A stretch of DNA of 64,000 nucleotides from Myxococcota bacterium. Its GTDB lineage: Bacteria; Myxococcota_A; UBA9160; UBA6930. Below, piece by piece: positions 29,783 through 38,789 of this stretch; position 1 is the first letter of the stretch, and every line of letters begins with the position of its first letter. The notes below the pieces were generated by a model. That model saw nothing but the letters and a program-made list of their open reading frames with translations, was not told the DNA's origin and searched no databases. A program made the position numbers and the translations under genes. Location: the NCBI GenBank assembly GCA_965223705.1, contig OZ245015.1:3520001-3584000 (forward strand). The letters run 5' to 3'.

Positions 29783-30275
29783 CTAGTGGTCGACGTAGCG
29801 CCGCTCCTTCAGCAGGTGCTCTGCGAGGTTGAGCATCGCGCTAGCCCTTTTCGCGTCGGCCTCGTGATCCCGCGACGGCGGTGCGGGGCGAGTCTCGGAG
29901 TCACACACGACGAAAGTCTCCAACCGCTCGGGCAGCATTACCGTCAATCGGTCATCGACACGAGCAGCGTAGAGTTGCTTGCGGTAGATGAGCGGCGCGA
30001 GGTGTGGCACATCGTCGGAAGCGAGCACGCGAGCCCCAGCAAAACCGGACCCATCGTGAGGTACTGGGCGCCGATCGTCGCATGCAGTTCGCGGTCGAGG
30101 GCGTATTCGTCGCAAGGCCTTCCCGCAGATGGCTGTAGCCCAGGAGCGAAACGCGGGACACAAAGAGCGTAAACAGGAGAGCAGCCCAGAGGCGGAGAAA
30201 TGGGATCAGCCGCCCGCTGGCGCTCCGCAAGGTGGCCGAGAGCCACGGAAGAAATCCGCGAACCAGACTCTTCAT
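29783..30275 (-). pseudogene. Fragmented remnant of a probable LTA-synthase/sulfatase family membrane protein
   Basis: ATG with GAGG RBS after the TPR gene; N-terminal TM GRLIPFLRLWAALLFTLFVSRVSLL; pieces CDEYALDR and GFAGARVL...HLLKERRY in other frames. Confidence 0.45.
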
Positions 30276-30288
30276 GCGGCCTCGGGAG

Positions 30289-30948
30289 TCAGCCCTTGCG
30301 CTCGATCCGAGCCAGTTTGTCTCGAGCTTCGGCGCGTCGTCCGGCGTCGGCCAGCGGACGTTGGGGACGGTCGGACGCTTTCAGGGCACGCTCGAGATGG
30401 CGTCGAGCGAGATCGTATCGCTCCTGCTCGAGCCAGTAGTCGCCGAGGAAGAAGTTGGCATCGATGCCGTCTGGAGAAAGCGCTACCGCCTTCTCGAGAT
30501 ACTCGAGCGCCAGCTGTTTGTCTCCGAAGCCGAGGGGGTAACCGGGCACCATGTAGTAGAGGGATCCCAAGGTCGTGTAGACCGAGCCATCGAGCGCTGT
30601 CGGGTCGATCGCTTCGGCCTCGAGCAGCAGGTCCCTCGCTCGGGTCACCTCGGGCAGCGCCGAAAAGAGTGACTGAATCCTTCCCATCGACCCGGCGTAG
30701 CTCGCCCGAGCGATCGCCTCCCAGATTTTCGCCTCAGCGCGATCCGGGTGACTTGCGCGGAGGGTCGAGACCTCCTGTACGAGCGCTTCGAAACGGTCGG
30801 CCTGCTTCGTTTTCGGCGTTTCGTATTTGATGGAGGCCCAGTCGCGCATGATGGACTGAAGGGACGAGTCGAAGTCTTTGGAAGCGGACGCATAGTCCGC
30901 CGCCCCCAGCACGAGGCATGTGGTCAGGCAAACGGTTATCCGAAGCAT
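30289..30948 (-). CDS. Secreted tetratricopeptide-repeat protein
   Basis: Signal peptide; WASIKY, ALDGSVYTTLGSLYYMVPGYPLGFGD, PDGIDANFF; AGGAG RBS. Confidence 0.85.
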   Translation of the reverse strand: MLRITVCLTTCLVLGAADYASASKDFDSSLQSIMRDWASIKYETPKTKQADRFEALVQEVSTLRASHPDRAEAKIWEAIARASYAGSMGRIQSLFSALPEVTRARDLLLEAEAIDPTALDGSVYTTLGSLYYMVPGYPLGFGDKQLALEYLEKAVALSPDGIDANFFLGDYWLEQERYDLARRHLERALKASDRPQRPLADAGRRAEARDKLARIERKG

Positions 30949-30956
30949 TGTGACTC

Positions 30957-36657: not shown

Positions 36658-38050
36658 GGGTCCCATCTCAATCGGCAGCCGCATGGCACTGCGCTACGGC
36701 GCGGCCCTGGCCTTTTCCCTGTTGCTCTTCGCCGCCCTCGTCGAGGCGCAGGTCGAACGCCGGGTGAACCGCCAGGCCGAGTTCCTGTTGCGTCTGCAGC
36801 TGGTCGATTTGGTCGACGATTTCGACGGCCACACCCGAAGTGAAGGTGGCGCTCATGCGCGCGCTTGGCTTTCCGGACATGCGGGTCTCCTGGCGTCGAA
36901 TGCGGACCCCCAAATCGGACTGGGCATTGAGTTGTTGGACCGCGACGGCCAAAGCCTCGAAAGCTTTGGGAGCCTTGTCGGACATCGTCTGCCCCTCGAC
37001 CACAGGTTGCGAGGCGCCGAGCTCGAGCGCAGTGTCCGCGCCGCCAACCTCGGCGGACGCTACGCGTACCTCGTGGCCACAGCGCCTGTGGAGGACGGCT
37101 TCCTGCGCGTGGCGGTCGACACGGAACAGTTCGCGGACAATGTTCGTGAGATCCGCCGGATCTTCCTGGTCTCGATTCCCATCGTGCTTGCGATCAGCGC
37201 TTTCGGAGGCTGGTTTCTTTCCCGTGGCGCCCTGAAACCAATTGCCGAGATCAATCGCACCGCGCGGCGAATCAGCGCATCGAACATCGATACCCGGATT
37301 CCGACATCGGGCAGCGGCGACGAGCTCGATCAGCTCGTGGGAACCCTCAATGACATGATCGCCCGTATCCGAGACGGGATGCAGCGGATTGAGCGCTTCA
37401 GCGCGAACGCAGCTCACGAGTTGCGTTCGCCGCTGCACCGCATCGCCCAGCAGATCGAGGGGTTGTTGTCCGACCCGACGCGATCGGAAGCCGAACGCCA
37501 ATCCTTCGAGACCATGGCCGAGAGTGTCGCGATCATGACCCGGGAGATCGAAGCGCTTCTGCAGCTCTCTCGCGTAGAGCAGGGGATTCCGGAGGGACGG
37601 AGACGGCGGGTCGATCTGGGACAGACGCTCTCCCTCGTGGGCGAATTCTTCCGACCGGACGCCGAAGCCCGCGGCCTCGAGTTGTCCACCATCGTGGCAG
37701 ACGGTTGCTTCGTCCACGGGGAGGAGACCTGGCTGCGGCAGTTGGCCTCGAATCTCGTCGGCAACGCCATCAAGTACACCCCGGCCGGTGGTCGGGTCGA
37801 GATCCGAGCCGCCCGAGAGGCGGGGGACGTGATCCTCGAGGTGACCGACTCGGGTCCGGGCGTCCCGATCGAGCGCCGGCAGGGGATCTTCGAGCGCTTC
37901 GAGCGAGGCACCGACTCGGGGGAGCCGGGCTTCGGCCTGGGTCTCCCCATCGCACGGGAAATTGTGAGAGCTCACGGTGGGACCATCTCCGTGTCGGATG
38001 CACCGGGAGGCGGCTCCCGCTTCTCGGTAAGACTAGCCGCCGCGGACTGA
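36656..38050 (+). CDS. HAMP-domain sensor histidine kinase
   Basis: Two TMs, AHELRSPL, NLVGNAIKYT, DSGPG, GLGL; alternative start at 36683. Confidence 0.93.
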   Translation: MGPISIGSRMALRYGAALAFSLLLFAALVEAQVERRVNRQAEFLLRLQLVDLVDDFDGHTRSEGGAHARAWLSGHAGLLASNADPQIGLGIELLDRDGQSLESFGSLVGHRLPLDHRLRGAELERSVRAANLGGRYAYLVATAPVEDGFLRVAVDTEQFADNVREIRRIFLVSIPIVLAISAFGGWFLSRGALKPIAEINRTARRISASNIDTRIPTSGSGDELDQLVGTLNDMIARIRDGMQRIERFSANAAHELRSPLHRIAQQIEGLLSDPTRSEAERQSFETMAESVAIMTREIEALLQLSRVEQGIPEGRRRRVDLGQTLSLVGEFFRPDAEARGLELSTIVADGCFVHGEETWLRQLASNLVGNAIKYTPAGGRVEIRAAREAGDVILEVTDSGPGVPIERRQGIFERFERGTDSGEPGFGLGLPIAREIVRAHGGTISVSDAPGGGSRFSVRLAAAD

Positions 38051-38099
38051 GAGAGCGTTTTCGACGTTCATCGGAGCTTCATCTAGATTCGCCTGCGGC

Positions 38100-38789
38100 A
38101 TGCACGTACTGCTGGTAGAGGATGACGCCGAAACGCGGGAGTACGTGGCCGGCGGTCTCCGCGAACGCGGCTTCGTGGTCGACACCGCGGACCGTGGTGA
38201 TTCCGGTCTCGAGATGATCACGACCGGAGCTTACGACGTGGTCGTCCTCGACGTCCGACTGCCGGGGTTCGACGGCTTCGAGGTGATGCGCCGGGTCCGG
38301 AGCGCCGGCGTCGGGACGCCGGTCCTGTTTCTCTCCGCACAGGGCGAGGTCCAGCACCGGATCGAGGGGCTCAACCTCGGCGCGGATGACTATCTCACCA
38401 AGCCCTTCGCGATGGCCGAGTTGCTGGCCCGGATCCGTGCGATCGCGCGGCGTTCGTTACCAGACGGCGAAAAGGAGAACCTCGTCGTAGCGGACCTGAC
38501 CCTCGATCTAGAGGGGCGCTCGGCGCGTCGGGGGGACGCTCGCGTCGATCTCACCCAAAAAGAATTTCAGCTTCTCGAGTACCTGCTTCGACACCGCGGA
38601 CAGGCCGTCTCGCGCACCATGATCATCGAGAGCATCTGGGGCTACGGCTTCGACACGTACTCGAACGTGATCGATGTGCACATCAACAACCTCCGCAAGA
38701 AGATCGACCGCGACTTCGAGCCGAAGCTGATCCACACCCTCAAGGGCTTCGGTTACGTGCTGGAGGATCGTCGGCCCGGCGCCGGCTAG
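38100..38789 (+). CDS. OmpR-family response regulator (CusR-like)
   Basis: LLVEDD, VLDV, GADDYLTKPF, SNVIDVHI..LRKKID, GFGY. Confidence 0.95.
   Translation: MHVLLVEDDAETREYVAGGLRERGFVVDTADRGDSGLEMITTGAYDVVVLDVRLPGFDGFEVMRRVRSAGVGTPVLFLSAQGEVQHRIEGLNLGADDYLTKPFAMAELLARIRAIARRSLPDGEKENLVVADLTLDLEGRSARRGDARVDLTQKEFQLLEYLLRHRGQAVSRTMIIESIWGYGFDTYSNVIDVHINNLRKKIDRDFEPKLIHTLKGFGYVLEDRRPGAG

Follow-up and report, generated by a model that had tools for sequence, protein, structure and literature searches.

In genome reports, genes annotated as 'thermostable hemolysin' (Pfam family PF12261) count as markers of virulence. One such gene lies in a tightly packed minus-strand operon within a 64,000-nucleotide stretch of a Myxococcota genome (contig OZ245015.1 of assembly GCA_965223705.1, positions 3,520,001 to 3,584,000; this whole stretch is called the window below), and it raises the question of whether the protein is a toxin at all or, as a first-pass annotation of this DNA had proposed, an acyltransferase-like enzyme of a small-molecule pathway. 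The answer reached here is that the name is very probably wrong, that the operon is real, widespread and uncharacterised, and that on balance it probably makes and exports an oxidised N-acyl lipid, the hemolysin-family protein being the predicted amide-forming acyltransferase of this line.

Fold and family of the hemolysin protein

The window protein matches PF12261 with 127.5 bits against a gathering cut-off of 27. A full HMMER scan recovered 1,418 clusters at E <= 0.001, and the family alignment used here comprises the query and 149 of the 150 matches listed. An AlphaFold model of the protein (pLDDT, the predicted local distance difference test, 89.7) gave as its first Foldseek matches TofI (2.9e-7), LasI, MesI, FeeM and RpaI. 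When the model was ranked against 48,161 representative chains, the top five were TofI (Z 16.5), LasI (15.7), FeeM (14.8), RpaI (14.8) and MesI (13.8), with other structures of the GCN5-related N-acetyltransferase (GNAT) fold below these LuxI/FeeM-type structures at Z 13.7 or lower; no pore-forming fold is found among the listed structural matches. The rmsd (root-mean-square deviation) is 2.9 over 162 aligned residues for TofI and 3.2 over 172 for FeeM. Profile-profile comparison related the hemolysin family to LuxI (76%, E 2.3e-5; a profile of 29 proteins) and to FeeM (40%, E 3e-4; 23 proteins), and 20 column-shuffled controls all remained below 1%. A sequence search of the PDB with the protein, singly or as a profile, gave no match, and a word-based homologue search returned just the query protein.

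Four residues (Y87, E111, G181 and P188) are invariant in the 150 aligned sequences, and the family possesses an invariant motif of its own, WGxYY...P. The first-pass annotation had seen a likeness to LuxI and FeeM in the EVGALA segment, and this is borne out by its E111, which falls on the LuxI Glu in the wE..Rf motif when aligned, as well as by both structural rankings. The same annotation was right that the protein lacks a signal peptide: a hydropathy heuristic found a hydrophobic N-terminus in 0 of 150 PF12261 members, and flagged one in 49 of the 71 tetratricopeptide repeat (TPR) proteins of the same operons.

The hemolysin-family protein is thus predicted, from its modelled fold, to lie in the LuxI/FeeM branch of the GNAT fold, and is predicted to resemble these acyltransferases yet to belong to neither family. 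Membership of the FeeM family was rejected, there being no match to PF21926 (best of 150 members E 0.072). The family shares its Glu with the LuxI synthases, which are its best structural matches, but when a 29-sequence LuxI consensus is set against the 150-sequence family alignment, the latter lacks the N-terminal Arg/Trp of LuxI, its E.D..D loop and the Arg of its SRF; since the residues with which LuxI binds S-adenosylmethionine are missing, the protein is not an N-acyl homoserine lactone synthase. Nor was a full-length LuxR found at the loci tested, where flanks limited to 5-8 kb yielded one match, confined to the helix-turn-helix domain; the LuxR profile, made for this purpose, matched 26 of 30 LuxI loci used as a control. 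Pfam may already place PF12261 among the acetyltransferases.

Conserved core, accessory genes and regulators

Two sets of loci were compared. Set 1 holds 80 loci found with a single relative (P0007) and is therefore biased to the kin of that protein; ligase, oxidase, short-chain dehydrogenase/reductase (SDR) and TPR genes all lie downstream of the hemolysin gene in 75 of the 75 loci that were evaluable (at least 4.5 kb downstream). Set 2 derives from a family search of 401 Pseudomonadota genomes sampled evenly over groups, in which 75 genomes matched at 81 places (75 of 401 is not a frequency estimate); 60 hand-chosen regions from these places were fetched together with 2 from the host's class, and 54 were evaluable. 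Among these 54, whose rows are not independent because of many small related genomes and a few genomes present in both sets, the ligase accompanies the hemolysin gene in 51, the oxidase in 49, the SDR in 49, the TPR protein in 47, and all four in 46. The conserved core is therefore shown to be hemolysin-ligase-diiron oxidase-SDR-TPR in fixed order, a synteny that the first-pass annotation had anticipated, except that it placed a DoxX-like gene in the core; the conserved fifth gene is the TPR gene, and DoxX is confined to the host's class (the window, L003, L093 and L094).

The family is rare in the host's phylum: with the window counted in each case, 3 of 301 genomes and 2 of 41 close relatives have it. 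The four host-class copies form one side of a branch in a quick tree of the oxidase, built on 63 rows after 22 near-duplicate loci had been left out (Shimodaira-Hasegawa-like approximate likelihood-ratio test 97). Porin, binding protein and orthologous kinase are present in three of these four; in one of them (G142, L093:11085-14930) the divergent arrangement of porin and binding protein against kinase and regulator is kept, with the core downstream of the regulator and not of the binding protein. The window operon is a divergent, lineage-specific version of the core.

The window ligase carries the ANL motifs A3 (P-loop), A5, A7 and A8 as TFTSGTTGTPKG, EGYGLSE, TGDLG and GRLRN, and its NCBIfam MenE and FadD matches are all under cut-off. 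The Asp that follows A4 in non-ribosomal peptide synthetases (NRPS) is absent, and its absence points to a lipid, as do the AMP-binding_C_3 domain and the predicted TatT/BstC fold of the TPR protein. The position of the A10 catalytic lysine is occupied across 142 ligase rows by Arg in 124, Lys in 8, a gap in 6 and other residues in 4, a tally made from a sequence alignment. This lysine is described as essential for adenylation in PMC11255334. On sequence grounds, the change would imply that adenylation proceeds by an unusual mechanism or that the enzyme of the host lineage is impaired. A predicted complex of hemolysin-family protein and ligase scored 0.55 against 0.01 for the best control. Its three runs gave 0.56, 0.55 and 0.06, with 49% or more of the contacts in agreement and a partner pLDDT of 76 or higher. 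The threshold that it passes was also passed by 116 of 157 pairs of solved structure and by 2 of 215 mismatched ones; this lends the complex weak support, because only 18 of the solved pairs, but both mismatches, passed with a score of 0.60 or under.

The first-pass assignment of the oxidase to the heme-oxygenase-like diiron enzymes holds. Its six ligands are intact (E80-H83-E137-H168-D172-H175) and the six positions are invariant in 49 of 49 rows, with EHEHDH in all 55 rows of a second sample. E-H-E-H-(D/E)-H is the motif by which heme-oxygenase-like dimetal oxidases (HDOs) are defined in PMC11363339, and by PF14518 and this motif the window oxidase is assigned to them. The nearest solved relatives are 3DDE (E 1e-23; function unknown), CADD (1e-5) and MboA (1e-4); UndA, BesC, SznF, CADD and MboA share the ligand motif and are distant in sequence. 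The SDR carries the TGxxxGxG and YSATK motifs.

For the TPR protein, a structure model (pLDDT 93) gave BstC (Z 19.4), 8G52 (19.4), 8G53 (18.8) and Tp0956 (18.4) as the top four matches and the next at 16.8; matches to the TatT family span 179-195 residues and generic TPR proteins reach at most Z 16.8, scores to be read with the high Z values that helical repeat folds generally give. The NF045602 BstC model matches at E 2.8e-7, under its cut-off. Differences from TatT and BstC are its size of about 200 residues, an identity of 14-20%, the absence of a lipobox Cys (0 of 71 by pattern) and of recurring PQM genes of tripartite ATP-independent periplasmic (TRAP) systems nearby. TatT-family proteins are described as binding sterols or long-chain fatty acids (PMC11713862), and the TPR protein is predicted, from its model, to be a periplasmic lipid carrier of the TatT/BstC kind.

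The porin and binding protein have hydrophobic N-termini and no Pfam or NCBIfam match. Their labels come from the ESM Atlas: the porin scores 0.97-0.98 to Porin_O_P clusters (the family being on 27% to 100% of members), and the binding protein 0.95 to a cluster in which 33% of the members carry PBP_like_2. Homologues of the porin adjoin the operon in 7 proteobacterial loci as well as in L003 and L093, and the latter two also have homologues of the binding protein.

Variants of the core occur elsewhere. L068 and 5 of the set 2 loci have ligase and oxidase fused in a single open reading frame (ORF), and in L133, L134, Pantoea and Streptomyces the oxidase slot is filled by a TauD enzyme. Hemolysin-ligase-TauD makes up a second operon class, seen at L133:6928-7800, L134:6675-11747, L005, L009, L209 and L212; its partners are an SDR in L133 and two class III aminotransferases with an amidase in L134, and in L005 and L212 it lies inside a ketosynthase cluster. 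In L009 it adjoins an amidase, a methyltransferase, an FAD/NAD(P)-binding protein and a pcaB-annotated gene, neighbours that we take to resemble nitrous-acid pathway genes. The Streptomyces triplets sit inside secondary-metabolite clusters. As separate observations, cupredoxin and FTR1-type iron permease genes lie beside the operon in L124, L130, L132, L133, L137, L140, L141 and L211, and a PMT_2 glycosyltransferase gene in L120, L137 and L141.

The linked regulators are diverse. Four types were seen: QseC-like with a 2CSK_N domain, CusRS-like (the window), a dCache kinase with a sigma-54 activator, and a TonB receptor with FecR and an extracytoplasmic function (ECF) sigma factor, the last lying divergent from the operon and upstream of the core in five Caulobacteraceae loci (L053, L067, L071, L072 and L087). 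A kinase or regulator is found in 58 of 75 loci of set 1 and beside 21 of 54 in set 2, over half of which have neither within the fetched flank. Orthologues of the window kinase are 45% identical in L003 and 42% in L093; of the metal-sensing traits of the QseBC/PmrAB type, neither 2CSK_N nor a periplasmic ExxE is present in the window and L093 kinases, and 2CSK_N is found in the L098 kinase. As the four types are unrelated and often absent, the suggestion of a dedicated product-sensing pair is weak and was not upheld; the repeated pairing with an envelope relay is as compatible with an imported substrate, or with simple control by stress, as it is with a signal.

The proposed pathway and its rivals

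From the gene content, motifs and synteny observed above, and from the predicted folds, we infer every chemical step of the following pathway. The ligase would activate a fatty acid or another acid that is not an amino acid; as its usual A10 lysine is missing, it would probably do so while bound to the acyltransferase, and the acyltransferase would move the acyl group onto a small amine. The diiron enzyme, or the TauD-type enzyme in other loci, would then oxidise the intermediate with O2, by desaturation, hydroxylation or oxidative decarboxylation to an enamide, and the SDR would adjust the oxidation state, though these last three steps may follow another order. HDOs and TauD-type enzymes are both capable of oxidative decarboxylation, and an enamide would be as in the fee cluster, which offers a lead only; the logic of that cluster is N-acylation followed by oxidative tailoring. 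The TatT-like protein may ferry the hydrophobic product across the periplasm, beside the porin and binding protein. The product could be an envelope component, a surfactant, a metal chelator or a signal, and the linked regulator would likely turn the operon on upon an outside cue, for which product sensing is not required. In its logic the operon resembles N-acyl amide pathways, with an unusual ligase and a TatT-like carrier. The window family shares its predicted fold with FeeM itself; it differs in its WGxYY...P motif, its ANL ligase, diiron oxidase and TatT-like protein, and in having no recurring acyl carrier protein.

Several points weigh against such a pathway. The operon has no known product or activity, and neither a carrier protein nor a dedicated inner-membrane exporter recurs near the core. 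The hemolysin-family protein is only 10-16% identical to its solved matches, and a shared fold proves no function; the window copy differs at 6 of 26 family-conserved columns (median 0), in a consensus biased to other clades. Hemolysin genes without partners occur in L006, L007, L111 (in tandem), L143, L144 and L152, several of them being second copies in genomes with more than one. The A10 position holds Val in the window and Gly in G015 and is cut off in the other two host-class copies, the ligases of L093:8961-10343 and L094:120-1958 stopping directly after LPDYA...W, ahead of the A10 motif; going by these sequences the host-lineage ligase may be impaired. One of the three complex runs also scored just 0.06. 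Finally, TatT proteins serve mostly in uptake (PMC11713862), and in the Pseudomonas alcaligenes operon of the same order the cluster fadD is reported to be required for growth on fungal exudate, which the authors read as fatty-acid use (PMC8304167).

These last points belong to an uptake and conversion reading, the strongest rival though unlikely, in which an outside lipid or antimicrobial is imported through the porin or TonB receptor, the binding protein and the TatT-like protein, is detected by the sensor, and is degraded or detoxified by ligase, oxidase, SDR and acyltransferase. The fatty-acid-binding role described for TatT proteins in uptake systems and the induction of the P. alcaligenes operon by exudate favour it, as does the pairing of the core with an outer-membrane channel and a relay, which comes in two unrelated forms (porin-PBP-kinase, PBP denoting the periplasmic binding protein-like gene, and TonB receptor-FecR-ECF sigma). 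The case is reduced by the fact that beta-oxidation genes do not recur beside the core, that enzymes of the LuxI/FeeM fold are established as biosynthetic, and that the hemolysin-ligase-TauD triplet occurs within Streptomyces polyketide and nitrous-acid-type clusters. Moreover, a V. cholerae ligase mutant still extends fed C13 to C15, according to the account in PMC12208996, and BstC, the best structural match of the TPR protein, is described as part of an export system (PMC11713862).

A bolder form of the biosynthetic pathway, which we regard as unlikely, joins these elements. PF12261 protein and ligase would be an obligate two-subunit amide synthetase of undescribed type that makes an unrecognised lipid signal, the ligase, devoid of the A10 lysine, handing its adenylate straight to the LuxI-fold subunit. 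Diiron oxidase and SDR would contribute to the signal, the TatT-like carrier would shuttle it, and it would be read back via whatever envelope relay had been recruited (porin-PBP-kinase in the window, QseBC in many Proteobacteria and TonB-FecR-ECF in Caulobacteraceae). On this view a heat-stable small molecule would be the source of the 'thermostable hemolysis' of delta-VPH clones.

It is improbable that the hemolysin-family protein is a regulatory GNAT, one that controls the ligase by binding it, in the manner of AcuA with AcsA, or that has a protein as its acylation target, and leaves the chemistry to oxidase and SDR. There is precedent in AcuA-AcsA, where K549R AcsA forms a stable complex (PMC11255334), and the adjacency of GNAT and ligase genes in 51 of 54 loci and the weakly supported complex would suit such a role. 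The A10 lysine that would accept the acetyl group is, however, kept in only 8 of 142 ligases and replaced by Arg in 124, and the best folds are those of small-molecule N-acyltransferases, ranked over protein acetyltransferases.

Least probable is that the protein is itself the haemolytic toxin of its annotation and the operon a virulence cluster, for which the family name speaks and, reportedly, the original cloning work. Although Gobet et al. note the Pseudoalteromonas operon as a potential virulence cluster (PMC6262041), the toxicity paper that they cite is titled on the thermolabile hemolysin TLH, PF12261 is present in many environmental bacteria, and neither a signal peptide in 150 members nor a pore-forming fold among the listed matches was found.

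The biosynthesis and export line is thus the preferred reading of a gene set that has been met before. As the first-pass annotation noted, the Vibrio delta-VPH/dth locus (VP1729-VP1735; VCA1111 with ligase VCA1110) has the same core order, as does P. alcaligenes (A9179_RS08440-08460). The window copy adds DoxX, porin and binding protein to these, its two-component pair is CusRS-like where theirs is QseBC-like, and its A10 position lacks a basic residue. VP1729-VP1735 appear in a predicted network in PMC10469919, and DthC/VCA1110 is placed beside dth in PMC12208996. In P. alcaligenes AVO110 the operon was co-induced 107- to 389-fold by fungal exudate and its regulator 38-fold (Table 4 of PMC8304167), and was read in the accompanying text as a beta-oxidation cluster. 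Searches of open full text, with subscription journals mostly outside it, gave no reading of PF12261 as an acyltransferase or of the operon as biosynthetic, and the supplement of PMC13185094 does not mention hemolysin. Were the protein an acyltransferase in a lipid pathway, its virulence annotation would be wrong across many genomes (75 of 401 in the Pseudomonadota sample), a function would be gained for an uncharacterised diiron-oxidase subfamily, for an ANL subfamily whose catalytic lysine is replaced by Arg or missing and for a small TatT-like family, and the unexplained role of delta-VPH would become testable.

Layout of the window and neighbouring genes

All the genes named by the first-pass annotation lie where it put them, with the kinase-regulator pair head-to-head with the porin, apart from a 'decayed membrane gene' that was not confirmed: its stretch consists of short ORFs in three frames, and no homologue was found.

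Table 1. Features of the operon and of the divergent regulatory pair, in window coordinates.
Feature	Position	Strand	Evidence or remark
Porin-like outer-membrane protein	35578..36657	minus	Accessory; start 36657, 36666 or 36684
Small secreted PBP-like protein	35088..35561	minus	Accessory
PF12261 'thermostable hemolysin'	34310..34981	minus	Pfam E 6e-37; alternative start 35038
AMP-binding (ANL) ligase, AMP-binding_C_3 C-terminal domain	32817..34313	minus	PF00501 (E 1.5e-43), PF23562
Heme-oxygenase-like dimetal oxidase	32161..32841	minus	PF14518 Haem_oxygenas_2, E 3e-25
Classical SDR, PRK09072 equivalog	31358..32173	minus	263 bits, cut-off 238
DoxX-like membrane protein	30957..31361	minus	PF13564 DoxX_2, E 3e-17; start ATG 31355 or GTG 31361
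Secreted TPR protein, predicted TatT/BstC-like periplasmic lipid carrier	30289..30948	minus	Hydrophobic N-terminus, structure model
HAMP-HisKA-HATPase sensor kinase	36683 (or 36656)..38050	plus	Nearest model CusS/CztS, below cut-off
OmpR-family response regulator	38100..38789	plus	Nearest model CusR/CztR, 257 bits vs cut-off 279
Stretch of short ORFs, three frames	29783..30275	minus	No homologue found

The overlaps described from hemolysin to DoxX are firm for hemolysin/ligase (4 nt), ligase/oxidase (25 nt) and oxidase/SDR (13 nt); that of SDR and DoxX depends on the start chosen, being a 4-nt overlap with GTG 31361 and a 2-nt gap with ATG 31355. The porin and kinase starts (36640-36720) are about 25 nt apart or overlap, which leaves no room between them for separate promoters, and a promoter and terminator scan found nothing exceeding shuffled controls.

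The 29783-30275 stretch has no relative in Pfam or NCBIfam, in 40 relatives or in plasmids at a meaningful E-value, nor among longer proteins, the latter being weak evidence. A remnant of a sulfatase or lipoteichoic acid synthase was considered and rejected, comparison with 30 sulfatase loci giving only chance-level pieces. The stretch is shown neither to be a gene remnant nor to be part of the system.

That the unusual C-terminus of the ligase or the broken ORFs stem from a faulty assembly was rejected, as short-read contigs (4 runs, 2 samples, 1 study, possibly the source) cover 29400-39200 without inserted or missing letters. Two short bubbles in these contigs, at 29875-30028 and 30763-30894, differ by 4-7 letters and imply co-occurring strains. 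The listed strain variants are 10 synonymous and 2 non-synonymous in DoxX and 7 synonymous and 3 non-synonymous in the TPR gene, patterns that look like those of genes under selection, and none falls in the hemolysin and ligase genes.

Beyond the regulator, 38786-43769 encodes an NHL/SMP-30 beta-propeller lipoprotein, a second propeller protein and two luciferase-like monooxygenases, which are not conserved with the operon. On the other side, an aromatic-cleavage run on the plus strand (26466-29759: fumarylacetoacetate (FAA) hydrolase, extradiol dioxygenase and aldehyde dehydrogenase) converges on the operon end, and a protein with four BON domains is encoded at 24838-26073, also on the plus strand.

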